A stretch of 64,000 bases of DNA from assembly GCF_003018115.1 (NCBI RefSeq), contig NZ_CP027457.1; one strand, written 5' to 3'. How positions within the stretch are numbered: position 1 is the stretch's first letter; each line of letters begins with the position of its first letter. Shown here piece after piece: positions 536 through 36,888 of the stretch. The notes beneath the pieces are model-generated. The model had not been told where the DNA came from, made no database searches, and saw only the letters and a program-made list of their open reading frames with translations. The stretch is from Escherichia coli. GTDB taxonomy: Bacteria > Pseudomonadota > Gammaproteobacteria > Enterobacterales > Enterobacteriaceae. The position numbers and the translations under genes are program-made.

Positions 536-662
536 CATGTCGCCAGGAGCCGCGGCTCCTTTGCGTATCCTTTTTTGTCTCCTCACCGTCTGGTCGGTGT
601 CCTGCTGAGACTGCTAACTTCCTGTTTTTGTTGGTGTTGTCCTTACACCGTCCAATCATGAT

Positions 663-707
663 TGGTGGAGCTGGCGGGAGTTGAACCCGCGTCCGAAATT
701 CCTACAT
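663..707. repeat. attL: 45-bp duplicate of the ssrA 3' end (prophage core attachment repeat)
   Basis: TGGTGGAGCTGGCGGGAGTTGAACCCGCGTCCGAAATTCCTACAT identical to 34905..34949; identity ends at 708. Confidence 0.85.
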
Positions 708-792: not shown

Positions 793-1839
793 TTAATGCT
801 CTGTCGCCAATCTGTCGCCATTGTAGGTCAACGAAGGTTGAGCCTTCCCTTTGTTTGTTATAATTTCATCAAAGATAGCTGGATTATTATCTTTCAGTAA
901 TCTTGCTAGTATAATGATTTGCCCAGACGAGCCATCATCCTTGAATGAAAGGAAATTATCGGTAATATCAAGAATATCAATGGTAAATTTGAAGTAAGTT
1001 TCAATTGTATCGCCAAGCTCAATGCTGGACATGAAGTTAGTAACCATTTCATATCCATCAAAGTATAAAGTTGCATGTTCATTTAACTCCATTGGAGTTA
1101 GGCAAAGCATTCGATTAAGTTCGGATAAGTGTTTTTCTATTGAATGAAGAGATTGCATTTGACGGATTAAAACTTCGTCAAACTGAGAGCCATGATTAGA
1201 TGAATGTATCTTCTCTAGGTTTTTTAGTATATCAACCCAGTGATTATTCACTTCACGTATGTATTCTTTATCTGTATTTTTAGGCCGTCCCTTCTCTGGT
1301 GAGCTATTTATGAAAATATATCTATATAGATGTATTGGGTAGTTAATTTTATAACTTATCTCTTTAGTACCATAATGACGTTCGCGTTTAATGGTTTTGT
1401 TAGGTAAATTGGTGAAATAATCAGTAACGAACTTTAGATGGCTATAGTAGCTATCAGATAGATTCTTTTGCTTGGTTTCCTCAATTTGTCGGTTTGTTTG
1501 AACTGTGCGGTGTATGTTTGCTACGACAGCAACAAATGGTATGGACAAAGAAAGTAAGGCGATAGGAAGCTTGCTAATTGCAATGAAATTATTAAAGCCC
1601 TCACTATCAAATTGAGGGGAATGTCCAAGCCAGGAAAATATACCAAAGTATATCGCTGAAAATACAGGAATCCTAAGTGATTGTTTAAATAAGTATTGAC
1701 TTGTTAATGGCCTTTCATCCATGTTAAAGCCTTTTTTTGATACGCATAGATATAATTCAAGGCATATATATAAAAAATATATTATGATAAGTAAGTACGA
1801 TATCCATGGGTATTGTTGGATATAGTTATTAACAAACAC
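793..1839 (-). CDS. hypothetical membrane protein (about 3 N-terminal TM helices plus ~230-aa soluble domain); AT-rich cargo between int and attL
   Basis: 348-codon ORF with GTG start at 1837-1839 preceded by GGAG; hydrophobic segments WISYLLIIIYFLYICLELYL, IPVFSAIYFGIFSWLG, LPIALLSLSIPFVAVVANI; AT-rich relative to phage backbone; no recognisable catalytic motif. Confidence 0.55.
   Translation of the reverse strand: MFVNNYIQQYPWISYLLIIIYFLYICLELYLCVSKKGFNMDERPLTSQYLFKQSLRIPVFSAIYFGIFSWLGHSPQFDSEGFNNFIAISKLPIALLSLSIPFVAVVANIHRTVQTNRQIEETKQKNLSDSYYSHLKFVTDYFTNLPNKTIKRERHYGTKEISYKINYPIHLYRYIFINSSPEKGRPKNTDKEYIREVNNHWVDILKNLEKIHSSNHGSQFDEVLIRQMQSLHSIEKHLSELNRMLCLTPMELNEHATLYFDGYEMVTNFMSSIELGDTIETYFKFTIDILDITDNFLSFKDDGSSGQIIILARLLKDNNPAIFDEIITNKGKAQPSLTYNGDRLATEH
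801..821. repeat. tandem direct repeats CTGTCGCCA(A/T), candidate integrase arm-type (P') sites
   Basis: CTGTCGCCAAT CTGTCGCCAT about 95-115 bp from the core; same 10-mer occurs as an inverted pair at 34808..34846 near attR. Confidence 0.4.
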
Positions 1840-2868
1840 TTTCTAATTTTCTCCATCCAAGGTTAGCAAGAGGATTTTTGGTTACAGCATCTTCCAGATG
1901 GTCGGGAGCGAAGTGGGCGTAAATCATTGTCATTTTTATATCGACATGGCCCAGAATATCGCGCAGCACCAGTATGTTTCCGCCATTCATCATAAAGTGA
2001 CTTGCAAATGTATGTCGTAATACGTGTGTGCATTGCCCTTCTGGTAGCTCGATGCCAGCTCGTTTTACCGCACGTTCAAAAGCTTTCCTACAAGGTGTAA
2101 ATAATTTTCCCCTATTCTTAGGCAGTTCTTCATATAAATCCTTTGAAATAGGCACTGTTCGGTTTTTCTTTCCTTTAGTCTTGGTATAAGTGATACGGTA
2201 TTTTGACACCTGATGACTCTGCAGGTTTTCGGCTTCGCTCCAGCGTGCGCCGGTGGCCAAGCATATTTTTGCAATCATCAGCAGACTGGGGCTTTGAGAA
2301 TCAGCACAGGCATCCAGCAGACGTTTAATTTCTTCCGGGGTCAGGAACGCCAATTCACCCTCAGCAATTTTAAATGTTGGCAGCCCAGCAAGCGGGTTGG
2401 GGGCTGCCAGTGGCCCAGCTTTTTCAGTGTACCAAAAACAGATGATAGGTTGCGCTGTTCAAGATTTACCGTGCGGGGCTTAACGGGCGACATAAGCGTG
2501 CCATCTTCATTTCGTACTTCACCTTTTAACCGTGCTTCGCGGTATTTCGTAAACTCACCAGCTGTCAGTTCTGAGGCGATGGGATCGCCTAGACCATTAC
2601 AGATAATTCTAAGTTTCGCCATGAGGCGCTTGGGGTCTGCGAGTGTTTGACCATACAGGGAATACCACAGCTCAATTAATTCTGATAGATGTCGCCGATC
2701 TTCCTTTTCCCCTAGCCATGGTTTTTTGTTCACTTCTTCCATTGTGAAGCTTTCAAACGCAATGGCTTCGCCTTTGGTAGCAAATTGCTTACGCACGCGC
2801 TTACCATTGCGTCCATTGGGATAGCACTCACACAACCATTTTCCGTTCGGCTGTTTTCTGATGGTCAT
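1829..2868 (-). pseudogene. int: P2-family tyrosine integrase, interrupted by an apparent 1-nt frameshift in a G5 run (2399..2403)
   Basis: Two overlapping ORFs (2341..2868 N-terminal part, 1829..2353 catalytic part with ...HVLRHTFASHF...MIYAHF motifs); adding one G/C to the homopolymer gives a continuous ...HWQPPNPLAGLPTFKIAEGELAFLTPEEI... reading. Confidence 0.7.
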
Positions 2869-2871: not shown

Positions 2872-3510
2872 TTAGAGGTTCTTGATTACTTTGACTGCAC
2901 GTCCTAGGACTTCCACATCATCTACAGAACATTCAAATGAAGTGTCATCTTGGTTAACTACTATTTTGTTTCCGGGTATGCGCGCAATTTTGACGATGCT
3001 TTTAACTCCGTCCATATCGACTAACCAGAAGCCATTACTGACTTGTTTAACAGACGTATCCACTACAAAGCTATCATTAGCTGTTTTAACAAATAAAGCG
3101 TTGGATGAGTCACCATCGAGCAGGCTGCTATCAAGAAGAATTTCATCACTTGGCTGCAGTTCGCCGTTCTTCAGTTCAACACGTTTGATGCTAGGAGCGA
3201 CGATCTTAGAAAGTGGTCTTACAGTGACAGGAGGTTCATTTTTGAGATTTGTTTCTTCGTTCTCACACGCATACATATCTCCTTGACCAGTAGCCAGCCA
3301 TAGAAGGGAAACTCCTGTTTCAAGGGCACATTGGATTACCCATTCGGCAGGAAAGCTATCCCTTAAGTATCTGTTAGCCATAGTGCTTTTTGATACTTCC
3401 AGATGTTCGCAGAGCTGCTGTCGTGAGCTGAAGTTGTAAGCCTTAATAAGCCTATTAATCGCATCGCGCCCACCACTATCATTCCCCGCCTTGATTAAAC
3501 TCATAATCAA
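2872..3510 (-). CDS. cI: phage 186 CI-type immunity repressor (N-terminal HTH, C-terminal oligomerisation domain)
   Basis: 212-aa ORF divergent from apl/cII; position next to int; HTH-like SRQQLCEHLEVSKSTMANRYL. Confidence 0.75.
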   Translation of the reverse strand: MIMSLIKAGNDSGGRDAINRLIKAYNFSSRQQLCEHLEVSKSTMANRYLRDSFPAEWVIQCALETGVSLLWLATGQGDMYACENEETNLKNEPPVTVRPLSKIVAPSIKRVELKNGELQPSDEILLDSSLLDGDSSNALFVKTANDSFVVDTSVKQVSNGFWLVDMDGVKSIVKIARIPGNKIVVNQDDTSFECSVDDVEVLGRAVKVIKNL

Positions 3511-3620: not shown

Positions 3621-3863
3621 ATGAGTACTGATATTTCAATTCGTGTACCAAAAGAGATGGCTACGCCTGCAGAGTTCGCGGAATGGGAAGGTATCTCCCG
3701 CGGCTCCGTGTATCAAAAAATTCACCATGGTCAGCTTGCTAAATACATGGTCAAGAAAGAAAAAAACAAAGGCCGCGTAAGCCTGCGTTATTTAATGTAC
3801 AAAACCGATCAGGTCCGTGAATCCCTCGGTCATTCCAACTTCCGCGTCATTGTTGGTAAGTAA
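3621..3863 (+). CDS. apl: Apl/Cox-like excisionase and transcriptional regulator
   Basis: 80-aa ORF first in the early rightward operon, opposite cI; HTH-like EFAEWEGISRGSVYQKIHHGQL. Confidence 0.7.
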   Translation: MSTDISIRVPKEMATPAEFAEWEGISRGSVYQKIHHGQLAKYMVKKEKNKGRVSLRYLMYKTDQVRESLGHSNFRVIVGK

Positions 3864-10356: not shown

Positions 10357-12138
10357 ATGGCTGAACTATTACCGCAAACAACTTCTATACAAACTATTTA
10401 TTCATGGTTTACTGAAGGTAAGATATTTGTTAATAGACGTTATCAACGAAAATTAGTTTGGACTGCAATAGAGAAACAAAAATTAATTGAATCCATTCAA
10501 AAAAAATATCCAATTCCTGCAGTTCTTCTCGCGGAAAGGGAAAATGATCCTGGCACATATGAAATAATTGATGGCCTACAAAGATTACATGCAATAATGT
10601 CTTTCATCGAAACAGGATATGAATCACTTGATGGAAAACGTTTTAATCTGGACGCTTTTCCCACAGCGAAAAATCGAGCGGATGAAGGTAAGTTTGTTGC
10701 AGTGAAAGCTGATAATCTTTTAAGTCAGCGTGAGGTTACTCAGTTATTGGATTATTCTCTTGCAATGTCCATTATGCGTAATGCGACTGAGAACGAAATA
10801 AATGATGTTTTTGATAGAATTAATACATACGGGCATAGACTTAGTGATCAAGAAAGGCGCCAGGCTGGTATACAAAATAAATTTTCAAATATGGTTAGGG
10901 ATATTGCCTGTTCTATCAGGGGGGATGTATCTGACGACATATTGCTTTTAGAGCAAATGCCGTCTATTAGCATTGATTTGCCACTAACTAAACATGGTTA
11001 CCAAATTCAGTCGGAAGAAGTATTTTGGGTAAAACATGGGATCTTACGTTCAACAGACCTTCGTGACAGTATGGATGAGCAATGCATTGCAGATATAGCA
11101 GCTTGTATTGTTGGAGGTAAGTTAATAGATCGTTCCAAAGATGCGCTTGATCAGATTTATAATAATGAAGATGAAGAGTATAGTCGTATTAGCTCTGCTA
11201 TTAATGTTTATGGTGAAGGAAAATTTGCAGAAGAGTTTAAATTCTGCATCCAGGAAATAACAAAAGTATGTAATAGTGACGGTGAAATTAAACTCAGGGA
11301 TTTAATCTTTACTAAACGTACTACAAATGCTTTCCCAGCCATATTTGCTGTGTTATTTATTGCTTTTCATGAATTACTCATTAAAGAAAATAAGAAGATT
11401 AATAATTATAAAGGTGTAAAAGACAATCTTAATAATATAGTCACTCGACTAGATACTAAAAGATCTGCTACTGGTGGGGAAGAGAGAAGAAAGAATATTA
11501 ATTCTATCATAGGCTTGATTAAAGATAACTTTATTGATAGCGCCGATAGCAGTCATATCTATAATTCTCACAATACGGTGGATATTGAGGATATTTTACG
11601 AAGATCTGAAATAGAGCTTGCAAATTATGAACTGAAACAGGGTTTGTTGATGTTAGGCGGAGAGCGAACTATTGATGATGGCATTCATGAGAAAATATTC
11701 TCCACAATTTGTGCTATTGCTAACATCGGTAAAGGTAACAAGAACGGTGTAGTTGGTAAGTTATTGCTTGGTGTAACAGATAAACCAAGTGATACAAGTA
11801 GAGTAAAAGAGCTTGATGATATAGATGCACATGTAGTTGGTGAGAGAAGTGTTGTTGGTGTTAAAAGAGAAGCTATTAAACTCGGCATATCAATGGAAGA
11901 ATATTATAGACGTTTTTGCGATGAGTTGAAAAAATCTGCTTTGAGTGAGCCTCTTAAATCACAAGTGGTGAGTTTGATTGACTATAATGACTTTTATGGT
12001 TATGGAGTTATAGTTATTACAATTCCACTTCTAGCATCTTATTCTAGTTATGATGGGGATATTTATTATCGTGCTGGCGATAATACCGTAAAAGCAACAG
12101 TTATCGAAGCAGCAGATATTGCAACACGTTTTAAATGA
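10357..12138 (+). CDS. DUF262 (ParB/GmrS-like NTPase/nuclease-fold) N-domain fused to Schlafen/AlbA_2-like C-domain; candidate anti-phage defence protein
   Basis: 593 aa; N-terminal RRYQRKLVW and IIDGLQRLHA motifs (DUF262 signature); C-terminal ELANYELKQ...ICAIANIGKGNKNGVVGKLLLGVTD...IYYRAGDNT resembles AlbA_2/Schlafen core; no H-N-H/DUF1524 motif; AT-rich; between cos and portal gene. Confidence 0.7.
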   Translation: MAELLPQTTSIQTIYSWFTEGKIFVNRRYQRKLVWTAIEKQKLIESIQKKYPIPAVLLAERENDPGTYEIIDGLQRLHAIMSFIETGYESLDGKRFNLDAFPTAKNRADEGKFVAVKADNLLSQREVTQLLDYSLAMSIMRNATENEINDVFDRINTYGHRLSDQERRQAGIQNKFSNMVRDIACSIRGDVSDDILLLEQMPSISIDLPLTKHGYQIQSEEVFWVKHGILRSTDLRDSMDEQCIADIAACIVGGKLIDRSKDALDQIYNNEDEEYSRISSAINVYGEGKFAEEFKFCIQEITKVCNSDGEIKLRDLIFTKRTTNAFPAIFAVLFIAFHELLIKENKKINNYKGVKDNLNNIVTRLDTKRSATGGEERRKNINSIIGLIKDNFIDSADSSHIYNSHNTVDIEDILRRSEIELANYELKQGLLMLGGERTIDDGIHEKIFSTICAIANIGKGNKNGVVGKLLLGVTDKPSDTSRVKELDDIDAHVVGERSVVGVKREAIKLGISMEEYYRRFCDELKKSALSEPLKSQVVSLIDYNDFYGYGVIVITIPLLASYSSYDGDIYYRAGDNTVKATVIEAADIATRFK

Positions 12139-18657: not shown

Positions 18658-19150
18658 ACGCTGCCTTGTCGGGGCCGTGCTGGCTATTGCTGCCACGCTG
18701 CCGGGTTTTCAGCAGCTTCACACCTCCGTGGAGGGGCTGAAACTGATTGCCGATTACGAAGGCTGTCGTCTGCAGCCGTATCAGTGCAGCGCGGGTGTCT
18801 GGACAGACGGCATTGGTAATACATCTGGCGTCATTCCGGGCAAAACCATTACGGAACGACAGGCAGCGGAAGGGCTGATCTCCAACGTGCTACGTGTGGA
18901 GCGGGCACTGGAAAAGTGTGTGAAGCAACAGCCGCCGCAGAAGGTGTATGACGCGGCGGTGTCGTTTGCCTTCAACGTGGGAACGGGCAATGCCTGCAGT
19001 TCCACGCTGGTGAAATTGCTCAACCAGCGGCGCTGGGCGGATGCGTGCCGACAGTTGCCGCGCTGGGTTTATGTAAAAGGTGTGTTTAATCAGGGGCTGG
19101 ATAACCGCCGAGCGCGGGAGATGGCCTGGTGTTTACAGGGAGCAAACTGA
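18638..19150 (+). CDS. K: endolysin (phage lysozyme, GH24-like)
   Basis: EGLKLIADYEGCRLQPYQCSAGVWTDGIGNT catalytic E-D-T region. Confidence 0.85.
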   Translation: MNPSIVKRCLVGAVLAIAATLPGFQQLHTSVEGLKLIADYEGCRLQPYQCSAGVWTDGIGNTSGVIPGKTITERQAAEGLISNVLRVERALEKCVKQQPPQKVYDAAVSFAFNVGTGNACSSTLVKLLNQRRWADACRQLPRWVYVKGVFNQGLDNRRAREMAWCLQGAN

Positions 19151-19151
19151 A

Positions 19152-19529
19152 ATGAAAAAGAAAGTAATTAGCGGGCTGTTTCTGATGTTATGGATGGCGC
19201 TGTTAATCGCAGCAATGGCGTATCCGCAGGGGATTTTTCCGGTACTGGCAGCGTCCGGCGTTTGGGTAGCCTGTTTGCTGACATGGGCGGTAATTCCGGT
19301 AGCACTGGCTGCGTTAATTCAGAATGGCCCGCTCTGGCAGGAGTTAAGGGCATCTTTGCTGAAGACAATTACCCGAAAAGAAAACGTATTTATCAGTTGG
19401 GTGATGCGATTGCTGATTGTTGTAAGTCTCGCATGGACGGGGTGGGCTATTACCCTGGTCTTTTATCTACTGACCGTTATTGCCTTCTGGATCACCCGTA
19501 ATCAGATGGCGCAACAGGTAGCCGCATGA
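19152..19529 (+). CDS. lysA: LysA-like membrane protein (lysis timing)
   Basis: ATG 19152; multiple TM helices; position after endolysin. Confidence 0.65.
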   Translation: MKKKVISGLFLMLWMALLIAAMAYPQGIFPVLAASGVWVACLLTWAVIPVALAALIQNGPLWQELRASLLKTITRKENVFISWVMRLLIVVSLAWTGWAITLVFYLLTVIAFWITRNQMAQQVAA

Positions 19530-19954
19530 ACCGGTTGCTGCTGGTTGTGCTGGCGTTATTACTGGCGGCGCTGGGCTGGCAGACGTGGCGGCTGGCTGAT
19601 GCCAGCCAGACCATCAGCACGCAGGCAAACGAGCTGCAGAGCAAAAGCCAGGCACTGGCAAAGAGCAACAGCCAGCTTATCAGCCTGTCCATTCTGACTG
19701 AAACCAATAACCGGGAGCAGGCGCGGCTCTATGCCGAAGCAGAACAGACCAGCGCACAGCTGAGACAACGACAACGCCGGATCGAGGAACTGAAACGTGA
19801 GAACGAGGATTTACGCCACTGGGCTGATACTCCTTTGCCTGCTGACATTATCCGGCTGCGGGAACGTCCGGCACTCACCGGAGGTGCAGCTTACCGTCAG
19901 TGGTTGTCCGCGAGTGACGCCGTGTCGGCTGGAGCAGGCAGCACCGCGCACTAA
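19526..19954 (+). CDS. lysB: inner-membrane spanin (LysB/Rz-like)
   Basis: N-terminal TM anchor and coiled-coil periplasmic domain. Confidence 0.75.
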   Translation: MNRLLLVVLALLLAALGWQTWRLADASQTISTQANELQSKSQALAKSNSQLISLSILTETNNREQARLYAEAEQTSAQLRQRQRRIEELKRENEDLRHWADTPLPADIIRLRERPALTGGAAYRQWLSASDAVSAGAGSTAH

Positions 19955-20087
19955 CGGTGATCTGAATGCGTTGCTGGATGAAACGGAGGCCGCCTGGGCG
20001 GTCTGTGCAGACAAAGTGGACATGATTATTGCGTGTCAGGAGCGAAACAGTGAACAAACCACAATCCCTGCGCCACGCCCTCAATAA
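19797..20087 (+). CDS. lysC: outer-membrane lipoprotein spanin (LysC/Rz1-like), overlapping lysB in another frame
   Basis: GTG start; lipobox LTLSGC; overlaps 3' end of lysB and 5' end of R. Confidence 0.7.
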   Translation: MRTRIYATGLILLCLLTLSGCGNVRHSPEVQLTVSGCPRVTPCRLEQAAPRTNGDLNALLDETEAAWAVCADKVDMIIACQERNSEQTTIPAPRPQ

Positions 20088-20481
20088 AGCGGTGCCTTAT
20101 GTCCGCAATAACCCGGACAAACTGCATCTGTTTGTGGATAACGGTTCGCTGGTTGCCACGGGGGCCAGCTCCATGTCGTGGGAGTACCGTTACACACTGA
20201 ACGCGGTGATTGAGGATTTCAGCGGCGACCAGAATCTGCTGATGGCCCCGGTTTTGCTGTGGCTGAGGGATAACCAGCCCGATGCCATCAATAACCCGGC
20301 GTTACGGGAAAAGCTATTCACCTTTGAGGTGGATATTCTGCGCAACGATGTCTGTGATATCAGCCTGAACCTGCAACTGACGGAACGTGTGCTGGTCAGC
20401 ACTGACGGCAGTGTGTCGAGCGTTGAAGCTATAGCGGAACCTGATGCACCTGAAGAAATGTGGACGGTGAAACGTGGCTGA
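20050..20481 (+). CDS. R: tail completion protein (P2 gpR-like)
   Basis: GTG 20050 with AGGAG RBS; synteny. Confidence 0.75.
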   Translation: MNKPQSLRHALNKAVPYVRNNPDKLHLFVDNGSLVATGASSMSWEYRYTLNAVIEDFSGDQNLLMAPVLLWLRDNQPDAINNPALREKLFTFEVDILRNDVCDISLNLQLTERVLVSTDGSVSSVEAIAEPDAPEEMWTVKRG

Positions 20482-20920
20482 ACTGCAGAAGGTGGACGAC
20501 TGGCTGAGTGCCTTGCTGGCGAATCTGGAACCAGCCTCGAGAAGCCGCATGATGCGCCAGCTGGCGCAGGAACTTCGCCGGACACAGCAGCAGAATATCA
20601 GGATGCAGCGCAACCCTGACGGCAGCGGCTATGAACCGCGACGGGTAACAGCACGCAGTAAAAAAGGCCGTATCAAACGTCAGATGTTTGCAAAGCTGCG
20701 CACCACAAAATACCTGAAAACTGCCGCCAGCACCGACTCTGCCAGCGTGCAGTTTGAAGGCAAGGTGCAGCGCATTGCCCGCGTTCACCATTACGGCCTG
20801 CGAGATCGCGTCAGTCGTAAGGGACCGGAGGTGCGTTACGCAGAGCGTCGCCTTCTGGGTGTAAATGATGATGTTGAGGCAATGACCCGCGACATGATTC
20901 TGCAATGGCTGGCGGGGTGA
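20474..20920 (+). CDS. S: tail completion protein (P2 gpS-like)
   Basis: 148 aa; synteny. Confidence 0.75.
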   Translation: MAELQKVDDWLSALLANLEPASRSRMMRQLAQELRRTQQQNIRMQRNPDGSGYEPRRVTARSKKGRIKRQMFAKLRTTKYLKTAASTDSASVQFEGKVQRIARVHHYGLRDRVSRKGPEVRYAERRLLGVNDDVEAMTRDMILQWLAG

Positions 20921-20924
20921 TCTT

Positions 20925-20942
20925 TGTATCAGCACTGATACA
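20925..20942 (+). promoter_or_regulatory. Ogr-dependent late promoter dyad TGT-N12-ACA (pV-like)
   Basis: TGTATCAGCACTGATACA (also a palindrome) about 55 bp upstream of V. Confidence 0.6.
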
Positions 20943-20988
20943 AGTTGCAGCACTGCCGCCTTTCTTCCCCTGATGGCAACCTTTCCCT

Positions 20989-21567
20989 ATGAACGCACAA
21001 TTAACCGAAATCATGCGCCTTATCACCAACCTGATCCGCACAGGGGTAGTCATCGAAGTGGACAGGGAAAACTGGCTTTGCCGGGTGAAAACGGGCGACC
21101 TTGAAACCAACTGGATTAACTGGCTGACGCTGCGCGCGGGTAATGCCCGGACATGGTGGCGACCATCGGAAGGTGAGCAGGTGGTGCTACTGAGTCTGGG
21201 CGGCAATCTGGAAACAGCCTTTGCGCTGCCCGCCATCTATTCGAATCAGTTCGCGCCACCGTCGACGTCGGCAGACGCCTGCGTGACAGAACATCCTGAC
21301 GGTGGCTGGTTTGAATACGAACCTGCCACCGGGCGTTGGTATGTAAGGGGCATCAAATCAATGGTCATTGAGGCCGCTGACAACATCACCATGAAAACCA
21401 GTGAGTTTGTACTGGAGGCTGACCACACGCGCATTAACAGCGAAGTGGTGATCAATGGTGGCGTTACCCAGGGCGGCGGAGTGATGAGTTCTAACGGGAT
21501 TGTGGTTGATGCACATCAGCATACTGGCGTCCTGAAAGGCGGCGACACAACCGGAGGCCCGGTATGA
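20989..21567 (+). CDS. V: baseplate spike/assembly protein (P2 gpV-like)
   Basis: 192 aa; synteny V-W-J-I. Confidence 0.8.
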   Translation: MNAQLTEIMRLITNLIRTGVVIEVDRENWLCRVKTGDLETNWINWLTLRAGNARTWWRPSEGEQVVLLSLGGNLETAFALPAIYSNQFAPPSTSADACVTEHPDGGWFEYEPATGRWYVRGIKSMVIEAADNITMKTSEFVLEADHTRINSEVVINGGVTQGGGVMSSNGIVVDAHQHTGVLKGGDTTGGPV

Positions 21568-21923
21568 CGCTTTATAGCGGGATGAACAATACCAGCGGTA
21601 AAGCCATTACTGATATTGACCATCTGCGCCAGTCGGTGCGGGACATTTTGCTGACGCCGCAGGGTAGCCGCATTGCCCGTCGGGAATATGGTTCCCTGCT
21701 GTCGGCACTGATAGACCAGCCACAAAATCCGGCATTACGCCTGCAGGTCATGTCGGCAGTGTATGTGGCGCTGAGTCGCTGGGAGCCACGGCTGACGCTG
21801 GATTCCATCACCATCAACAGCAACTTTGACGGTTCTATGGTGGTGGAGCTGACCGGGCGGCGGAATAACGGTGTGCCTGTGTCCCTTTCCGTATCAACAG
21901 GAGCAGAGAATGGCAGTGATTGA
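21564..21923 (+). CDS. W: baseplate protein (P2 gpW-like, gp25-like)
   Basis: 119 aa; synteny. Confidence 0.8.
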   Translation: MTLYSGMNNTSGKAITDIDHLRQSVRDILLTPQGSRIARREYGSLLSALIDQPQNPALRLQVMSAVYVALSRWEPRLTLDSITINSNFDGSMVVELTGRRNNGVPVSLSVSTGAENGSD

Positions 21924-22818
21924 CCTTTCGCAGTTGCCTGCACCGCAGATTGTGGATGTGCCGGACTTTGAGACGCTGCTTGCCGAACGCAAGGCAGAAT
22001 TTGTGGCGCTTCATCCGAAAGATGAGCAGGAAGCCGTGATCCGAACGTTGGAACTGGAATCTGAACCCGTCACTAAATTGTTGCAGGAGAACGCTTACCG
22101 TGAGTTGCTTCTGCGCCAGCGCATTAACGAAGCCGCGCAGGCGGTGATGGTGGCTTACGCGATGGGCGGCGATCTTGACCAGCTCGCTGCCAACTACAAC
22201 GTGACACGCCTGACGGTGACGCCTGCTGATAATGATGCTGTGCCGCCCGTTGCAGCTGTGATGGAAAGCGATGAAGCGTTACGCCTGCGTGTGCCTGCAG
22301 CCTTTGAAGGGCTTTCTGTTGCGGGGCCAACTGCAGCTTATGAATTTCATGCCCGAAGCGCCGACGGTAGGGTGGCGGATGCCAGTGCAACCAGCCCGGC
22401 ACCTGCAGAGGTGGTGCTGACTGTCCTTAGCCGCGAAGGCGATGGAACTGCAGAAAAAGACCTGCTGGACGTGGTGGAAAAAGCTCTGAACAGTGAGAAC
22501 GTCCGCCCGGTGGCTGACCGTCTGACGGTTCGCAGCGCAGAAATCATCCCGTATCGCGTGGAAGCTACCATTTTTCTCTATCCGGGACCGGAAGCAGAGC
22601 CGGTAATGGCAGCGGCAAAAGCCAGCCTGCAGAAGTACATCGCCAGTCAGACGCGTCTTGGTCGGGATATTCGCCGTAGCGCCATCTTTGCCGCCCTGCA
22701 TGTTGAGGGTGTGCAGCGTGTGGAGCTGGCTTCTCCTCTGGCGGATGTGGTCCTGAACAAAACACAGGCGGCATCATGTACGCAGTGGAGCGTAACCAAC
22801 GGAGGAACGGATGAATAG
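21910..22818 (+). CDS. J: baseplate protein (P2 gpJ-like)
   Basis: 302 aa from ATG 21910 (same length as P2 gpJ). Confidence 0.8.
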   Translation: MAVIDLSQLPAPQIVDVPDFETLLAERKAEFVALHPKDEQEAVIRTLELESEPVTKLLQENAYRELLLRQRINEAAQAVMVAYAMGGDLDQLAANYNVTRLTVTPADNDAVPPVAAVMESDEALRLRVPAAFEGLSVAGPTAAYEFHARSADGRVADASATSPAPAEVVLTVLSREGDGTAEKDLLDVVEKALNSENVRPVADRLTVRSAEIIPYRVEATIFLYPGPEAEPVMAAAKASLQKYIASQTRLGRDIRRSAIFAALHVEGVQRVELASPLADVVLNKTQAASCTQWSVTNGGTDE

Positions 22819-23416
22819 TCTGCTGCCACCGGGTTCAACTTCACTGGAGCGCCGACTGGCGCAAACCTGTAGCGGGATTTCTGATCTGCAGGTGCCGCTG
22901 CGTGACTTGTGGAATCCGGCTACCTGTCCGGTCAGCTTCCTGCCTTATCTCGCCTGGGCGTTCTCTGTGGATCGCTGGGACGAGGGCTGGACAGAAAGCG
23001 TCAAACGCCAGGTAGTGAAGGATGCTTTTTATATTCATCAGCATAAAGGAACCACCAGTGCCGTGCGGCGGGTGGTGGAACCGTTCGGATTCCTGATCCG
23101 CATTATTGAGTGGTGGCAGACCGGAGAGGCTCCGGGCACGTTTCGCCTGGATATCGGCGTGCAGGACCAGGGCATCACTGAAGATACCTATCTGGAACTT
23201 GAGCGACTGATAAGCGATGCCAAACCATGTAGCCGCCACATGATCGGCATGTCCATCAATCTGCAGACCAGCGGCCCGCATTGGGTGGGAGCCGCCAGCT
23301 ATCTTGGCGAAGAAATCACGATCTATCCGTATATCAACGAAACAATTATTTCCGGTGGCACCGCGCATGAAGGCGGGGCGGTCCATGTTATTGACACAAT
23401 GAGAGTGAATCCATGA
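22811..23416 (+). CDS. I: baseplate protein (P2 gpI-like)
   Basis: 201 aa; GGAGG RBS. Confidence 0.75.
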   Translation: MNSLLPPGSTSLERRLAQTCSGISDLQVPLRDLWNPATCPVSFLPYLAWAFSVDRWDEGWTESVKRQVVKDAFYIHQHKGTTSAVRRVVEPFGFLIRIIEWWQTGEAPGTFRLDIGVQDQGITEDTYLELERLISDAKPCSRHMIGMSINLQTSGPHWVGAASYLGEEITIYPYINETIISGGTAHEGGAVHVIDTMRVNP

Positions 23417-24835
23417 GCACAAAATTTTATACCCTGCTGACGGATATTGGCGCGGCGAAACTTGCCAGCGCCGCCGCGCTCGGTGTGCCGCTAAAAATTA
23501 CCCATATGGCGGTGGGCGATGGCGGCGGAGCATTGCCGACGCCGGACGCAAAGCAGACGGCACTGGTAAATGAGAAACGCCGGGCTGCGCTGAATATGCT
23601 CTATATCGACCCGCAGAACAGCAGCCAGATTATTGCTGAACAGGTGATCCCTGAAAATGAGGGTGGTTGGTGGATACGTGAAGTGGGTCTGTTTGATGAG
23701 TCCGGGGCATTGATTGCCGTAGGCAACTGCCCGGAAAGCTATAAGCCGCAACTGGCTGAAGGCAGCGGGCGCACCCAGACCGTGCGCATGGTGCTGATTA
23801 CCAGCAGCACGGACAATATCACCCTGAAAATCGACCCTGCCGTCGTGCTGGCAACCCGCAAGTATGTGGATGACAAGGTACTGGAGCTGAAGGTGTTCGT
23901 GGATGATAAGATGGCAAAACATCTTGCCGCACCGGACCCGCATTCACAGTATGCACCCAAAGAAAGCCCGACATTGACCGGAACACCCAAAGCGCCAACG
24001 CCAGCGGAGGGGAATAACACCACGCAGATTGCGACCACCGCGTTTGTTCAGGCCGCTATTACTGCTCTGATTAACGGTGCGCCAGCCACGCTGGACACAC
24101 TGAAAGAAATTGCCGCAGCCATTAACAATGACCCGAAATTCAGTACCACCATTAACAATGCGCTGGCACTAAAAGCACCGCTGTCGAGTCCGGCACTCAC
24201 CGGAACGCCAACAGCACCTACTGCGGCACAGTCGGTCAACAATACACAGATTGCCACTACAGCTTTTGTGAAATCAGCGATTGCGGCAATGGTGGGTTCT
24301 GCACCTGCTGCACTGGATACACTGAACGAACTGGCGGCGGCGCTGGGGAATGACCCGAACTTTGCCACGACAATGTTGAATGCGCTGTCAGGCAAACAAC
24401 CGCTGGACAATACGCTGACTAATTTGAGTGGAAAGGATGTTGCTGGTCTTCTCGCATACCTTGGTTTGGGAGAAGCGGCAAAACGGGATGTGGGGACAGG
24501 GGAAAATCAGATACCGGACATGGCCTCTTTTGCCAGTGGTGATGGATGGATGAAATTACCCAACGGGAAAATCCTGCAATATGGTCGTGGTGCGGTTACG
24601 CCGACATTATCGACGCAAAACAATGAGAATTACATTCAGCATTCCTTTCCCCAAAAAAGCGGACTGCGCCATGCTTACTCATTCTGGTGATGGCGGTGCG
24701 CCTTTAGGCGCTGGGCGAGGGTTCGTGATGACTGCAGAAGGCCCAACGTTAACCGGCTTTAATTCTGCTTACAGAACGTCATCAACCAGCGACACGGTAT
24801 CGATGAATTACAGTTGGTGGGCTGTTGGTGAGTAA
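23413..24835 (+). CDS. H: tail fibre protein (P2 gpH-like); variable C-terminal part lies inside the invertible segment; apparent +1 frameshift at C4A6 run 24649..24658
   Basis: Collagen-like repeats (TGTPKAPT.., TGTPTAPT..); frame from 23413 stops at 24690 while an overlapping frame (24581..24835) runs open to just before tfa; removing one A from A6 joins them. Confidence 0.7.
24449..24474. repeat. invertase crossover site (left), TTCTCGCATACC-TT-GGTTTGGGAGAA
   Basis: 26-bp imperfect dyad inside H at the GLGE codons; right half is the exact reverse complement of the left half of the site at 26358..26383. Confidence 0.6.
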
Positions 24836-24855
24836 TTTTATTCAGGGTGATTTAT

Positions 24856-25299
24856 ATGAACGAATATGTTTATAGCGCAAGGCATAATGCTTTTTTCCCT
24901 GTGGATATGATTGATAAATATAAATCAGAGGGATGGGATTTATCAGACGCTAAGGAAGTAAATCAAAATATTATCAGTGAGTTTATGGCTGAACCGCCAC
25001 AAGGAAAAATCCGTATTGCCGGAGATGATGGGCTGCCTGCGTGGGCAGATATTCCTCCACCCACGCATGAAGAGCTTATTGAAATTACTGAATCAGAAAG
25101 ACAGCTACTAATTAACCAGGCCAACGAATACATGAACAGTAAGCAATGGCCCGGTAAAGCCGCTATTGGTCGTCTGAAAGGTGAGGAACTGGCGCAATAT
25201 AATTTGTGGCTGGATTATCTGGACGCACTGGAGCTGATCGATACTTCCGGTGCGCCAGATATTGAATGGCCTACGCCTCCGGCAGTTCAGGCCAGATGA
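24856..25299 (+). CDS. tail fibre assembly protein (Tfa, gpG/U-like)
   Basis: Follows the fibre gene in current orientation. Confidence 0.75.
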   Translation: MNEYVYSARHNAFFPVDMIDKYKSEGWDLSDAKEVNQNIISEFMAEPPQGKIRIAGDDGLPAWADIPPPTHEELIEITESERQLLINQANEYMNSKQWPGKAAIGRLKGEELAQYNLWLDYLDALELIDTSGAPDIEWPTPPAVQAR

Positions 25300-25873
25300 C
25301 ATCCGGCGCTGTGCTGGTATCTGTTGCCGTCACCGCGTCAATGTAATCCAGCACAGCGTTAAGGCGGGTTGTTTCTGCCTGCGTCAGCTTCCGTCCGGCC
25401 TGTAATTTCAGTTGAATCAGACTGATGGAGGCCATTGCAGTATCAATCAGCGACTGGCGCTGTGCTTCTGCTGCATCTACTGCTGCGCCGTGCTGTGCCT
25501 TGGTATCTGTCACCCATTTCTCACCATTCCATTCATCGTATGGCGTTAACGGGGCGATAGTGGTTGTATTTTCAGGATAATCACCCGGAGCTGTGATTTC
25601 TTTCGATTCTCCTGTTTCGATGCTATAGACGATTTCACCGCGATGATCTGGCACATATTCCCATGAATTTAAATTCACAGAACGACAGATTGCATAACCA
25701 ACCTTATGTATGCCTGGTGCATCAAGACAGGAACATGCCGGAATACCGACACCAACAGCAAGATATTCAGTTGACGTGGAAATATATTCCCGTGTTTCAC
25801 CATCGTAGTTATAAACGGTAACATCCCCTGCCTTTGTTGCAATAAGGTCACTATTTAATATTGCTTTATGCAT
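25271..25873 (-). CDS. alternative tail fibre assembly protein (Tfa')
   Basis: 200 aa on opposite strand within invertible segment; C-terminal ...DTSTAPDVIWPELPEA parallels Tfa ...DTSGAPDIEWPTPPA. Confidence 0.75.
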   Translation of the reverse strand: MHKAILNSDLIATKAGDVTVYNYDGETREYISTSTEYLAVGVGIPACSCLDAPGIHKVGYAICRSVNLNSWEYVPDHRGEIVYSIETGESKEITAPGDYPENTTTIAPLTPYDEWNGEKWVTDTKAQHGAAVDAAEAQRQSLIDTAMASISLIQLKLQAGRKLTQAETTRLNAVLDYIDAVTATDTSTAPDVIWPELPEA

Positions 25874-26370
25874 CAGGCTGCCCTCACGATATAATTAAAT
25901 GCAATATTACGCGGACGCGTTTCTGAGGCTGCGGCACCTAAACCAGCCACTGATTGTTTATATGTTTTAAAGGTTCCATAATCCGGTGCTGGTAATCCGG
26001 CATCGTTTGTGTTTCCTCTTTTGATAATGTCAGTGCCACTATTTACCCAGCTTTCATCAAAATAGAAATTAATAGTTGCATCAGTCACAATCGTGGATCT
26101 TGACGGTAATCCATGAGCATGATCCTCCGTTGCATATCCCTGAATACTTAAAATAGAGCGACCTGTATCAATCCCCGCCCGTCATCCCAGCCACGAATAA
26201 ACTCACCACGTAAATCAGGCAATTTATTTGTCGGGTAAACTTTTGCCAGTTCCGGGTATTCTTCAGCAGAAAAAGCTGCACCATTGCATTTCAGCCAGCC
26301 TGTAGGCGGAGTGGCTGAAGGCCACGGAACAGGGACACCAACAGGTAATGCAGAGCCTTCTCCCAAACCA
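25873..26370 (-). other. alternative tail-fibre variable C-terminal segment (H'), promoterless, with apparent frameshift at C4 run 26173..26176
   Basis: Minus-strand reading from the crossover site: ...GLGEGSALPVGVPVPWPSATPPTGWLKCNGAAFSAEEYPELAKVYPTNKLPDLRGEFIRGWDDGRG, then frame shifts to ...DTGRSILSIQGYATEDHAHGLPSRSTIVTDATINFYFDE... Confidence 0.6.
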
Positions 26371-26383
26371 ACGTTTATGAAAA
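26358..26383. repeat. invertase crossover site (right), TTCTCCCAAACC-AA-CGTTTATGAAAA
   Basis: Inverted relative to left site; core dinucleotide AA vs TT. Confidence 0.6.
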
Positions 26384-26438
26384 TGCAGAGATAATGGCTA
26401 ACTGGCATCATCCCCGGTTTTTATTCAGGGGATTGATC

Positions 26439-27005
26439 ATGCTTATTGGCTATGTACGCGTGTCAACAAATGACCAGAACACCGATTTGCAACGTAATGC
26501 ACTGAACTGCGCGGGATGTGAGCGGATTTTTGAGGACAAAATCAGTGGCACTAAGTCCGACAGACCGGGGCTTAAAAAACTGCTCAGGACACTATCGGCA
26601 GGTGACACACTGGTTGTCTGGAAGCTGGACAGGTTGGGGCGCAGTATGCAGCATCTTGTTACGCTGATAGAAGAGTTGCGCCAGCGTGGCGTGAATTTCC
26701 GAAGCCTGACTGACAGTATTGATACCAGTACCCCAATGGGCCGTTTCTTTTTTCATGTCATGGGTGCCCTGGCTGAAATGGAACGCGAACTGATAGTTGA
26801 ACGTACCAGGGCAGGGCTGGCTGCAGCTCGTGCCAAAGGCAGAGTAGGTGGGCGTCGTCCTAAGTTGACCACCGAACAGTGGGCACAGATTGGACGTTTA
26901 CTCGAGGCCGGAGAATCAAGACAGCGTATTGCACTGATTTTTGATGTGGGCGTTTCTACCATTTATAGAAAATTTCCGGTGAATGAGAGCAATGAATCGC
27001 CCTGA
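26439..27005 (+). CDS. serine DNA invertase (Gin/Hin/Cin/Pin family)
   Basis: MLIGYVRVSTNDQNTDLQRNAL (catalytic Ser in VRVST) and C-terminal HTH; 188 aa. Confidence 0.9.
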   Translation: MLIGYVRVSTNDQNTDLQRNALNCAGCERIFEDKISGTKSDRPGLKKLLRTLSAGDTLVVWKLDRLGRSMQHLVTLIEELRQRGVNFRSLTDSIDTSTPMGRFFFHVMGALAEMERELIVERTRAGLAAARAKGRVGGRRPKLTTEQWAQIGRLLEAGESRQRIALIFDVGVSTIYRKFPVNESNESP

Positions 27006-27053
27006 GTCAGCATTATTTTGATTTTTCCTGTAAGCGGACAAATACCGTTATTT

Positions 27054-27071
27054 TGTGTGAATAACGACACA
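27054..27071 (+). promoter_or_regulatory. Ogr-dependent late promoter dyad TGT-N12-ACA (pF-like)
   Basis: TGTGTGAATAACGACACA about 85 bp upstream of FI. Confidence 0.6.
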
Positions 27072-27147
27072 ACTGCGCTTAGCTGTTTGTCAGGCACAAT
27101 CACTTCAACATAGGGCGAAGCCTAATCCAATCAGGAGGTTCGCCACT

Positions 27148-28320
27148 ATGGCTCAGGATTACCACCACGGGGTGCGCGTTGTTGAAGTCAACGAAGGCAC
27201 CCGATCTATTACCACGGTGAGCACCGCCATCGTGGGTATGGTCTGCACGGGCGATGATGCCGATGCAAAAATGTTTCCTCTTAATAAACCCGTGCTGATC
27301 ACTGATGTGCTGACTGCCAGCGGTAAAGCGGGTGAGTCAGGTACTCTGGCCCGTTCGCTGGATGCCATCGCTGACCAGGCAAAACCCGTGACCATTGTTG
27401 TGCGTGTGCCGCAGGGTGAAACGGAAGACGAAACCACGACCAATATCATCGGCGCAGTGACTGCTGAAGGTAAAAAAACAGGTATGAAAGCCCTGTTATC
27501 TGCCCAGTCACAGCTCGGCGTTAAACCGCGCATTCTCGGCGTGCCAGGCCACGACACCAAGGCGGTAGCTACTGAGTTGCTGAGCGTGGCGCAAAGCCTG
27601 CGTGGATTTGCTTACCTGTCAGCGTATGGCTGCAAGACAGTGCAGGAGGCGATCACTTACCGCGAAAACTTCAGCCAGCGCGAAGGGATGCTGATCTGGC
27701 CTGACTTTACTGGTTGGGACACGGTGCTGAATGCCGAAGCAACGGCATATGCCGCCGCCCGTGCGCTTGGTCTGCGCGCCAAAATTGACGAGCAGACCGG
27801 ATGGCACAAAAGCCTGTCCAACGTGGGCGTGAACGGTGTCACCGGAATTTCTGCAGATGTGTTCTGGGATCTGCAGGACCCGGCAACCGATGCAGGTCTG
27901 CTGAACCAGAACGACGTCACCACGCTTGTGCGTAAAGACGGTTTCCGCTTCTGGGGTTCCCGCTGCCTGAGTGATGACCCGCTCTTTGCCTTCGAAAACT
28001 ACACCCGCACGGCGCAGGTGCTGATGGACACGATGGCAGAAGCACACATGTGGGCGGTGGATAAACCGCTTAACCCGTCGCTGGCCCGCGACATTATCGA
28101 AGGTATCCGCGCCAAAATGCGCAGCCTGGTCAGTCAGGGCTATCTCATTGGTGGTGATTGCTGGCTGGATGAGTCGGTGAACGACAAAGACACGCTGAAA
28201 GCCGGAAAACTCACCATCGACTACGACTACACGCCAGTGCCGCCACTTGAAAACCTGATGCTGCGTCAGCGCATCACCGATCAGTACCTGGTGAATTTCG
28301 CCAGCCAGGTCAGCGCGTAA
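27148..28320 (+). CDS. FI: tail sheath protein (P2 gpFI-like)
   Basis: 390 aa; strong RBS AGGAGG; synteny. Confidence 0.85.
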
Positions 28321-28329
28321 GGGGACAAC

Positions 28330-28845
28330 ATGGCATTACCACGCAAATTAAAACACCTGAACCTGTTTAACGACGGGAACAACTGGCAGGGGATCGTTGA
28401 GTCGCTGACGCTGCCGAAATTTACCCGCAAATATGAGAAGTATCGCGGCGGCGGAATGCCGGGTGCGGTGGATGTGGATCTGGGGCTTGATGACAGTGCG
28501 CTGGACACAGAATTTTCCATTGGTGGTACTGAATTGCTGCTGTTTAAACAGATGGGTAAAGCCACGGTGGATGGCATCCAGCTGCGCTTTACCGGCTCTA
28601 TTCAGCGTGACGATACCGGGGAAGTGCAGGCCGTGGAGCTTGTCGTGCGTGGACGTCACAAAGAAGTGGATTCCGGCGAGTGGAAGACGGGCGAAAGCAA
28701 CACCACCAAAGTGACCAGTACCAACAGCTACGCGAAGCTGACCATCAATGGTGAGGTGCTCTATGAAGTGGACCTTATCAACATGGTGGAAATTGTGGAC
28801 GGTGTGGACCTGATGGAAGCGCACCGCAACGCCCTCGGCCTCTGA
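28330..28845 (+). CDS. FII: tail tube protein (P2 gpFII-like)
   Basis: 171 aa; synteny. Confidence 0.85.
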   Translation: MALPRKLKHLNLFNDGNNWQGIVESLTLPKFTRKYEKYRGGGMPGAVDVDLGLDDSALDTEFSIGGTELLLFKQMGKATVDGIQLRFTGSIQRDDTGEVQAVELVVRGRHKEVDSGEWKTGESNTTKVTSTNSYAKLTINGEVLYEVDLINMVEIVDGVDLMEAHRNALGL

Positions 28846-28899
28846 TATATCTGAACGGCGCGGGATACCGCGCCAGAACCCAATTGACAGGACAGCAAA

Positions 28900-29202
28900 A
28901 TGAGCGATAAGCAGACTGAAAAGACCATTCAACTGGATACCCCCATCAAGCGCGGTAAAACAGAAATCACCGAAATTGTGCTGCGTAAACCGCAGTCCGG
29001 TGCGCTGCGCGGTACACGCCTGCAGGCCATTATGGATATGGATGTAAACGCGATGATGACCGTGATCCCCCGCATCTCCAGCCCGGCGCTGACTGCACAG
29101 GAAATTGCAGAGATGGACCCGGCAGATCTCACTGCCATGTCGGTTGAGGTTGTCACTTTTTTGTTGAAGAAGTCGGTGCTTGCCGGTTTACCGACAGCCT
29201 GA
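28900..29202 (+). CDS. E: tail assembly chaperone (P2 gpE-like)
   Basis: 100 aa, precedes tape measure gene. Confidence 0.75.
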   Translation: MSDKQTEKTIQLDTPIKRGKTEITEIVLRKPQSGALRGTRLQAIMDMDVNAMMTVIPRISSPALTAQEIAEMDPADLTAMSVEVVTFLLKKSVLAGLPTA

Positions 29203-29336
29203 CGGTTGACGATCTGGTGGCAGATATCGCCACCATTTTTCACTGGCCGCCATCCGTTACTGACGTTATGCCGCTGACCGAAGTGCTGGAATGGCGGTAT
29301 AAAGCGATTCAGAGAAGCGGGGCCAACGATGAGTGA
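29157..29336 (+). other. programmed -1 translational frameshift: slippery heptamer TTTTTTG (29157..29163) and E' extension ending at TGA 29334..29336
   Basis: T6G slip site near end of E; -1 frame is open for 59 codons and ends as T begins (G/GT-like tail chaperone arrangement). Confidence 0.65.
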
Positions 29337-34279: not shown

Positions 34280-34300
34280 AACCTGCTACGGCAGGTTTTT
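34280..34300. terminator. bidirectional Rho-independent terminator
   Basis: AACCTGC-tacg-GCAGGTT followed by TTTT; serves ogr (+) and the convergent WYL-BRCT gene (-). Confidence 0.65.
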
Positions 34301-34781
34301 ATTCATCTGGGATCTCACCCGTTTCAAGAAAATGTATAAAGCCAGGCTCATCTATGATGATTGTGCCTTTCATCCTGGCTGCCGATACTTTTGATGGGCC
34401 TGCATTGTAACCGCAACAGAGCATCTGAAGGCTTTGGGTTACAGAGGTTCTTACCGTTAATCCTTGTTCATTCGCCTTATCAACCAATCTTTCTTTATCT
34501 GCTTTCTTAAATCCGGTGAAACACACATCGAATGTATTTTTTTTCGGACCAGACTGCTTAGTGAGATGTGAGTAGCTTTCGGGGAGGAATGACGCGCATT
34601 CCTGAATGGCTTGTTCTGGTGAATCGTACTGTTTAAGAATGCGGTCTTTTCGGAAGGTTTTTATTCGATCGGTGTTCTTACAAATGCCCTGTATATGATT
34701 TTCGCTATAACTGATGCTCTGTATAGAGTGAACACCGATACGACCATTTGCATTGATGTAAACAAAGTGAAGTTCTTCCAT
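34299..34781 (-). CDS. small WYL-domain plus BRCT-domain protein, cargo between ogr and attR
   Basis: 160 aa; N-terminal FVYINANGRIGVHSI...GICKNTDRIKTFRKDRI (WYL-like, ends in the FRxDRI signature); C-terminal DVCFTGFKKADKERLVDKANEQGLTVRTSVTQSLQMLCCGYNAGPSKVSAARMKGTIIIDEPGF (BRCT-like); RBS AGAGG before ATG at 34779-34781. Confidence 0.6.
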   Translation of the reverse strand: MEELHFVYINANGRIGVHSIQSISYSENHIQGICKNTDRIKTFRKDRILKQYDSPEQAIQECASFLPESYSHLTKQSGPKKNTFDVCFTGFKKADKERLVDKANEQGLTVRTSVTQSLQMLCCGYNAGPSKVSAARMKGTIIIDEPGFIHFLETGEIPDE

Positions 34782-34846: not shown

Positions 34847-34904
34847 TTTGCCGCCACTACCAAAGAAAAAGGGGCTACGCTTTCACGTAACCCCTTGATT
34901 TATT

Positions 34905-35267
34905 TGGTGGAGCTGGCGGGAGTTGAACCCGCGTCCGAAATTCCTACATCCTCGGTACTACATGCTTAGTCAGTCTTTACATTCGCTTGCCAGCTGCGGA
35001 CGGACACGCCACTAACAAACTAGCCTGATTAAGTTTTAACGCTTCAACCCCTGGCAGGGCTTCCACGCGATCTCTTTTGGGTTTGACCTCTCTTGATCCC
35101 CGTCCTAAGAGCGGAGGCTAGGGAGAGAGGGCTCTAAGCAGGTTATTAAGCTGCTAAAGCGTAGTTTTCGTCGTTTGCGACTATTTTTTGCGGCTTTTTA
35201 CGAGGCCAACCGCCCCTCGGCATGCACCTTGGGTTTCGCAAATCCCGTCGAATCCAGAATCAGCCCC
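34905..35267 (-). ncRNA. ssrA: tmRNA (SsrA), complete; 3' 45 nt form attR
   Basis: Reverse complement matches the E. coli tmRNA from GGGGCTGATTCTGGATTCGACGGG to ...GGTTCAACTCCCGCCAGCTCCACCA, including the tag-encoding region. Confidence 0.95.
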
Positions 35268-35481
35268 AATGTGTAAAGGTAAGTATACCAGATTTATGAG
35301 CGCCATGACCAGCCTCAATGGCGTTATCGTTAAAGATTTAGCACCCATGTAGCCTGATTTTTATTCGATTAAGCAATGGGATGGCAACATTTGTGTCGGA
35401 TGTGATAGCCAATAAGATGTTCATTCGCGCCGCCGGAGAGGGAGGCGCGGTGAGGAACTGGTCAATAATTGGAGTGCAGGT

Positions 35482-35964
35482 TTAACGGTGGGCGTTTTTC
35501 ATGATACGCGCTTTATCCACCTGCCATTCGCGCTCTTTGATATCTGAACGTTTATCGTGCTGTTTCTTACCTTTGGCGACGCCGATTTTCACTTTGCACC
35601 AGGCATTTTTCCAGTACAGGGAGAGCGCCACTACGGTATAGCCTTCTCGATTGACGCGACCGTACAATGAGTCCAGTTCGCGCTGGTTGAGAAGTAACTT
35701 GCGGGTACGGGTAGGGTCGCACACCACATGCGTGGAGGCCACGGCCATTGGCGTGATGTTAGCGCCAAACAGAAATGCCTCTCCGTCACGCAGAAGGACG
35801 TAGCTGTCGCTGATATTGGCTTTTCCTGCGCGCAGGGATTTAACTTCCCAGCCTTGCAGGGCAAGTCCCGCTTCGAACTCTTCTTCGATAAAGTATTCGT
35901 GACGGGCGCGCTTGTTAAGCGCGATGGTCGCTGAACCAGGTTTATGTGCTTTTTTCTTCGTCAT
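35482..35964 (-). CDS. smpB: SsrA-binding protein SmpB
   Basis: 160 aa, directly upstream of ssrA on same strand; sequence as E. coli SmpB. Confidence 0.95.
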
Positions 35965-36095
35965 AAGCGTCGTGAATCATCGGTAATCTGAAATCGAAAA
36001 CACCCCATATCAATCCTGCGGGGGACAAGGCTCTATCTTAGCATGAACCCGATGTTACCCAGCGCCGGGATAGCGTTTTTTTTACAGCAGGATAA

Positions 36096-36852: not shown

Positions 36853-36865
36853 CAGACAGAAAAAA

Positions 36866-36888
36866 GGTGCTCATTGAGCACCTTTTTT
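36866..36888. terminator. bidirectional terminator between ratB and bamE
   Basis: GGTGCTC-att-GAGCACC followed by TTTTTT. Confidence 0.6.

Follow-up and report, generated by a model that had tools for sequence, protein, structure and literature searches.

Cryptic prophages of Escherichia coli, e.g. DLP12, Rac, e14, Qin and CPZ-55, have been reviewed as "grounded" elements (PMC6379469), and the phage Fels-2, like SopE-phi, integrates into ssrA (PMC3448106). Both descriptions bear on the locus analysed here, a prophage of ~34 kb at ~662 to 34949 in a 64,000-nucleotide (nt) stretch of an E. coli chromosome (RefSeq assembly GCF_003018115.1, contig NZ_CP027457.1; the whole stretch is referred to as the window). 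The prophage belongs to the 186/Fels-2 type of the P2 family. Its integrase gene, int, has lost a single base, and judged from the sequence the prophage was very probably grounded by this frameshift only recently and would be unable to excise. The features that it has in common with the reviewed grounded prophages are a mutation in an excision element that would fix the prophage in place, vertical inheritance, and the retention of immunity and accessory genes (PMC6379469). The classical examples are, however, heavily deleted and rearranged, whereas the damage observed in the window prophage comprises the single-base loss from int and the tail-fibre frameshifts, and its attachment (att) sites are intact.

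The likeness to the Fels-2/SopE-phi/186 group includes the gene order (int, cI, apl, cII, fil, dam, replication gene A and P2-type late genes), a CI-type repressor, and integration in the 3' end of ssrA with int located at the end far from ssrA. The int gene of Salmonella phage RE2010 is ~86% identical to that of the window at the DNA level. Unlike this group, the window prophage has a frameshifted integrase, GmrSD-like and BRCT-like cargo, and a Gin/Hin-type invertible tail-fibre segment. The phenomenon, the phage group and the attachment site are all known, and biologically the locus is nothing new in kind. It illustrates cleanly, and in a way that can be dated, how prophage domestication begins: a point lesion in int and lesions in host-range genes are fixed in a natural E. 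coli lineage while att, immunity, lysis and candidate defence cargo remain intact. Direct att repeats at a tRNA-like gene delimit the element, the two core copies being identical at 46/46 nt, and beyond its integrase end the ypjA autotransporter gene comes to its end:

662..707, no strand: att core copy at the integrase end, a perfect 46-nt repeat of the ssrA 3' end
34904..34949, no strand: att core copy at the ssrA end, i.e. the 3' end of the functional transfer-messenger RNA (tmRNA) gene
34905..35267, minus strand: ssrA (tmRNA), the integration target

The lesion itself is described by the following features, in which ORF denotes an open reading frame and aa amino acids:

1829..2868, minus strand: disrupted gene for a tyrosine recombinase (integrase of the P2/HP1/186 type); 346 aa in the intact homologue
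2344..2868, minus strand: N-terminal ORF of 175 aa, made up of 154 native and 21 out-of-frame residues; stop codon at 2343..2341
1832..2353, minus strand: C-terminal ORF of 174 aa with the whole catalytic domain; no start codon other than the TTG at 2353, which is preceded by GAGG 5 nt upstream
between 2406 and 2407, minus strand: one-base deletion in codon 155; in relatives the coding strand has a T here and the plus strand an A
2399..2403, no strand: G5 run (C5 on the coding strand), of the same length in the two closest intact relatives

A first-pass annotation, made from the letters of the window, had described an integrase split into two frames at 2868..1829 on the minus strand, and this is borne out by the ORFs 2868..2344 and 2353..1832. 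It had further located the cause in the G5 run, where one extra G was said to restore a continuous protein of 349 aa, and had proposed a comparison with related intact prophages. We aligned the gene with three relatives (CFSAN051542, 99.5% identity; 503440, 99.3%; A41, 94.7%). The alignment contains a single gap in the window integrase, opposite a lone T. The G5 run exists as described, but it is not the cause of the frameshift, as intact relatives carry the same run; in A41 the five-base run is broken by a substitution. On the coding strand the context reads CACTGG[T]CAGCC, i.e. CACTGG[T]CAGCCCCC, with the missing base in brackets and no homopolymer at the site. Inserting this T yields a 346-aa protein that equals WP_000155498.1 except for A345V. 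An extra G in the G5 run also restores the frame, again with 346 rather than 349 aa, and introduces the substitutions S155Q and A156P.

In the intact protein, Pfam assigns Int_N (core-binding) to residues 57–167 and the catalytic domain to the C-terminal part. The two domains are joined in one polypeptide in the relatives and lie in different frames in the window, where the first ORF matches Int_N (PF24624) only and the second PF00589 only (E = 2.7e-26). The break falls inside the end of Int_N, ~15 residues ahead of the catalytic domain. The 154 native residues of the first ORF comprise the arm-binding region and most of the Int_N/core-binding domain, and the catalytic residues R209, H282, R285, H308 and Y317 (intact numbering) are all encoded in the second. 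Homology is strong to the integrases of HP1 (1AIH) and P2 (5C6K, 5DOR), the catalytic-domain crystal construct of HP1 being matched with E = 8e-68 from residue 170 on. Unlike in the HP1 and P2 enzymes, the catalytic domain in the window is split from the DNA-binding domains by the frameshift. In tyrosine integrases such as those of lambda, P2 and HP1, the arm-binding, core-binding and catalytic parts must act together on the att sites.

The following sequence of events is proposed. A single base outside any repeat was lost from codon 155, where the core-binding domain comes to its end, and translation therefore stops prematurely after 21 wrong residues, leaving a catalytic domain that has no normal start and is unlinked from the DNA-binding part. 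We infer from this layout that functional Int is lost and that the still-perfect att sites would not be recombined. The prophage would then be grounded, capable neither of excision nor of renewed lysogenisation, despite its intact apl-like gene. One of the two alternative tail-fibre ends is frameshifted in this lineage as well, and the other end has, in the window, a further frameshift of its own.

The deletion is not confined to this assembly, its exact truncated products recurring on ~17 to 25 independent contigs. The exact 175-aa product occurs on 18 contigs and the exact 174-aa product on 17 (NCBI, ENA, Logan); in the contig look-up, 24 contigs with the deleted allele were read. Carriers include GCA_946909845.1, an ENA metagenome scaffold and the Logan assemblies SRR8321524, SRR33680639, SRR31617790 and ERR10796150. 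Six carrier contigs were fetched; compared with the window over stretches of up to 12 kb, each shows 2 to 9 single-nucleotide polymorphisms (SNPs), and these are nested. For example, 5577C, 5584G and 7953G are common to L010 and L012, and 3289T to L012 and L014 (L numbers denote the sequences fetched for comparison). As the carriers are separated by 2 to 9 nested SNPs, they represent independent isolates rather than copies of one assembly, and it follows from the same nesting that the deletion is inherited and older than this small diversification. In L009, the one carrier shown together with host flank, the 720 bases shared with the window are 100% identical, and a further 8 kb of the same ypjA flank is 99.95% identical to strain E1373 of enterotoxigenic E. 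coli (ETEC) lineage L7. Eleven further places were collapsed under L009 in the look-up, and their neighbouring genes are mostly the same. The carrier flanks fit vertical descent at one chromosomal site.

By contrast with these carriers, the best match to the window int among 5,426 complete RefSeq E. coli genomes is intact (99.5% identity). The int gene is covered to at least 80% in each of the 213 records that matched, which represent 212 complete E. coli genomes, and among the matches listed every row is annotated "site-specific integrase". The fetched relatives each have a single integrase ORF, of 346 aa in L001 and L002 and of 340 aa, due to an earlier stop, in L003. The intact allele is represented by 16 contigs in IMG/VR, whereas the deleted allele was found in none of the IMG/VR contigs and had no match in JGI metagenome contigs. 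This yielded no additional carriers and no sign of the mutant phage as free or excised DNA, which is weak negative evidence as to excision. These comparisons identify the integrase deletion as genuine and as passed on vertically within a small group of E. coli akin to ETEC lineage L7. For the integrase a homopolymer miscall can be dismissed, because the site is no homopolymer and the allele has been reproduced independently.

The remainder of the prophage is well preserved. Apart from int and the tail fibre, all compared genes are intact, which would place the element at an early stage of prophage decay, and the overall pattern looks like early neutral decay. The suggestion of the first-pass annotation that the prophage is locked into the chromosome with its cargo intact thus stands in part: the lesion is real, the att repeats are perfect and the genes are full length. 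Selection to keep the cargo, as implied by the same suggestion, is unsupported; nothing indicates selection for the cargo genes in particular, because the structural genes are equally intact.

Several observations weigh against grounding by the int frameshift. Every catalytic residue is kept in the second ORF, and its GAGG-TTG start overlaps the stop codon of the first, so that both halves could be made. The new frame moreover contains the C5 run and a T_TTA_AAA heptamer, at which an occasional –1 slip could bring ribosomes back to the integrase frame. In the carriers the integrase has suffered no further damage, but with only ~10 SNPs per 12 kb in the whole lineage, chance would lead one to expect this, and it is uninformative. 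Finally, another integrase may be present elsewhere in the genome, our view being that of the 64-kb window.

The first of these points lead to the alternative that survives best, if at a low level: that the split integrase still works, either by rare –1 slippage (CCC_CCA or T_TTA_AAA, 2374..2368) or by separate halves that assemble on the DNA. The break coincides with a domain junction, and the second ORF starts 3 residues past the start of the self-folding HP1 construct. GAGG is found 5 nt before the TTG, which itself overlaps the upstream stop codon, and the T_TTA_AAA heptamer is seen in the sequence in the correct register. Furthermore, the frame repair by an extra G differs from the wild type at two residues only. 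Fragment complementation has reportedly been achieved with Cre. The two-frame layout is, on the other hand, absent from every homologue checked outside this lineage, and so is not the product of evolution towards programmed frameshifting. In the wild-type gene the heptamer is not in register, and both heptamer and TTG are by-products of the wild-type sequence, which makes coincidence the most likely origin. No stimulatory RNA structure was found, the 90 nt downstream folding at –22.2 kcal/mol compared with –20.8 on average for shuffled sequences (z = –0.47), and efficient slippage would need a longer run than C5. Promoter and terminator signals for separate expression of the second ORF amounted to weak consensus hits, fewer than in shuffled sequence. 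In addition, the frameshifted allele was not found among the viral-particle-derived or other metagenome contigs referred to above, and where flanks are known it resides at one chromosomal site only. We consider a working split integrase improbable on these grounds. Its specific variant, a naturally split integrase of low activity that would leave the prophage throttled rather than locked, is slightly less probable still.

Mobility through Int supplied in trans, by a related integrase elsewhere in the genome or by a co-infecting phage, is comparably unlikely. Neither the att sites nor the apl gene is damaged, and a second integrase is often found next to the same ssrA site in relatives (L003, L005). 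No second integrase is present beside this prophage within the 64-kb window, however, and the neighbouring integrases in the relatives are of a different, ~409-aa type. Tyrosine integrases of that type are not expected to recognise the arm sites of this phage.

The least credible reading is that int is intact in the cell and the missing base a homopolymer miscall: single-base indels are the commonest assembly error, and one of the three prophage frameshifts (C5 to C4, 26173..26176) does lie in a homopolymer and is unique to this assembly, but the integrase deletion is located outside any homopolymer and the identical allele recurs on ~24 contigs from unrelated sequencing runs and assemblers.

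Grounding through the int frameshift is thus retained as the preferred reading, and the question of assembly error can be followed at the two remaining frameshifts. Both had been noted in the first-pass annotation as lying in the tail fibre, and both were recovered, at 24617..24620 and 26173..26176:

23413..24690, plus strand: tail-fibre gene, truncated to 425 aa (473 aa in relatives)
24617..24620, plus strand: site A, inherited gain of one A (A3 to A4) within the variable end of the tail fibre
26173..26176, minus strand: site B, lost C (C5 to C4, plus strand) in the alternative, inverted tail-fibre end; window only
24449..26383, no strand: invertible tail-fibre segment with its 27-nt inverted repeats (24449–24475 and 26357–26383)
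26439..27005, plus strand: serine DNA invertase, 188 aa, intact, adjoining the invertible segment

Unlike the integrase deletion, both tail-fibre indels change the length of a homopolymer relative to close relatives. The related contigs were found via the short neighbouring tail-fibre assembly protein; the "repaired" 473-aa tail fibre itself had no exact-sequence record. The allele at site A is present in 8/10 related contigs. Three of its carriers stem from samples with the integrase deletion: L018, a contig identical with L009 among the integrase carriers, and contigs from ERR10796150 and ERZ28594605. The recurrence identifies the extra A as real and inherited in the lineage. At site B all of the related contigs (10/10) have C5, and the lost C is either a private mutation or a homopolymer error. 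Over ~25 kb compared with L009, L015 and L018 (1..12868 and 18960..31561), and over the host flank compared with L008, no further private indel was found in the window, which again speaks against a general assembly problem. Assembly error is accordingly refuted by comparison for the integrase and the A4 site and stays open for the C4 site only; the first-pass annotation had offered it as the alternative. In practical terms, an assembly frameshift can be separated from sequencing error without raw reads when the exact truncated products are sought in independent public assemblies. Here, the look-up sorted three frameshifts into two that are real and one that is undecided.

Sites A and B sit in the two alternative C-terminal ends of the invertible tail-fibre segment, each of which has its own assembly protein. 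The locus displays the features of a Gin/Hin/Cin-type invertible switch, namely inverted repeats, an adjacent serine invertase and occurrence in both orientations. A PF00239 Resolvase domain is recorded for the invertase homologue in the related contigs, which is 97% identical to the window gene. The window and L019 have the segment in one orientation, and L015, L017 and L018 have it in the other, giving rise there to an intact fibre of 515 aa. The invertase is judged active in the lineage because near-identical relatives carry the segment in both orientations. The relatives keep one working fibre, whereas the window as assembled has none.

The host part of the window (34905..64000) begins with ssrA and smpB, continues with recN, ffh and clpB, reaches into a ribosomal RNA (rRNA) operon and is 99.8% identical to E1373. 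The host ORFs are all of the expected length. No frameshifting indel was detected in this 29-kb flank relative to E1373, the closest genome, in agreement with the earlier remark that ~29 kb of host genes are free of frameshifts. The first 14 kb are without any indel, and the remaining 15 kb contain four single-base gaps only, one near 49040, where it borders on a length difference between genes, and three in the 16S rRNA gene. One of these three is at 60478: at 60474–60478 the window has G5, the canonical 16S rRNA sequence, whereas L008 has G4. The G4 of L008 is likely an error in the assembly of that relative, which favours the base-level quality of the window. The contrast of three indels in the 34-kb prophage with none in 30 kb of host DNA was considered as evidence and set aside as weak, as by our own arithmetic it has P ~0.15 under a uniform error rate. 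Among the sequence comparisons, the decisive evidence is the recurrence of the same allele in independent assemblies rather than the phage/host contrast. As a separate observation, the window and E1373 differ in length by ~45 bp at ~49038–49054, in the yfiL-aroF intergenic region.

The early genes of the prophage follow the order int, cI, apl-like, cII, fil, DUF5347, DUF2732, traR, dam, replication gene A and dinI-like. Downstream of dinI-like come a cargo slot and then the P2-type portal, terminase, capsid, lysis, baseplate and tail-fibre genes, followed by the sheath, tube, tape measure, D and ogr genes. The regulatory and accessory genes are as follows:

2872..3510, minus strand: CI repressor gene, intact
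3621..3863, plus strand: Apl/Cox-type small regulator, 80 aa, intact; presumed excision directionality factor, from its position and the RefSeq label of its homologue
10357..12138, plus strand: cargo gene for a GmrSD_N/NsnA-like protein, 593 aa, intact
34299..34781, minus strand: cargo gene for a BRCT-like protein, 160 aa, intact, adjoining the ssrA-side att copy
793..1722, minus strand: hypothetical protein, 309 aa, intact, between the integrase gene and the att core

A Pfam search gave no match for the Apl/Cox-type regulator (3621..3863). With int and the tail fibre treated above, the remaining genes are full length compared with their homologues in the TW10690 prophage, with the exception of Fil, which matches 52/98 residues of the TW10690 form; the 66-aa form of the window equals the annotated form in the int-intact relative L001. 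The gene for the Dam methylase is intact and was counted with the cargo genes.

The 116-nt spacer of the cI-apl switch contains two substitutions, at 3520 and 3549. The C at 3549 is found only in the window, and the T at 3520 is common to the window and L011 alone; the other relatives, int-intact ones included, have C and T there. These substitutions might influence the lysis-lysogeny switch.

The 593-aa GmrSD_N/NsnA-like protein is a candidate anti-phage nuclease; its gene occupies the variable slot that separates the replication genes from the portal gene. In L011 its gene has a 1-nt deletion at window position 10506. On the opposite strand to this gene, an ORF of 111 aa is located at 9489–9824; it is labelled DUF8087 in related contigs and has no Pfam match here. 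The 160-aa protein shows a weak BRCT match together with a match to PADLOC PDC-S48, and the 309-aa hypothetical protein a weak match to a 2TM effector model. Both of these accessory genes are placed just inside the att sites.

Records from other genera were encountered for two of the genes. OK490418.1, named Klebsiella phage Kp4865-2 (46.7 kb, unannotated), matches the integrase gene with 99.4% identity at intact length, and members of the 309-aa protein cluster are also labelled Klebsiella and Salmonella. Either this type of phage may cross genera, or the Klebsiella and Salmonella records may be mislabelled.

Finally, E1373 (L004, NZ_LR882990.1, 1209000–1230200) carries a different island of ~21 kb in the same ssrA-ypjA slot and with the same left boundary. 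Besides three integrases, this island carries a relaxase together with a His-Xaa-Ser (Hxs) radical-SAM system, and the ssrA-ypjA slot is a hotspot for the swapping of elements.

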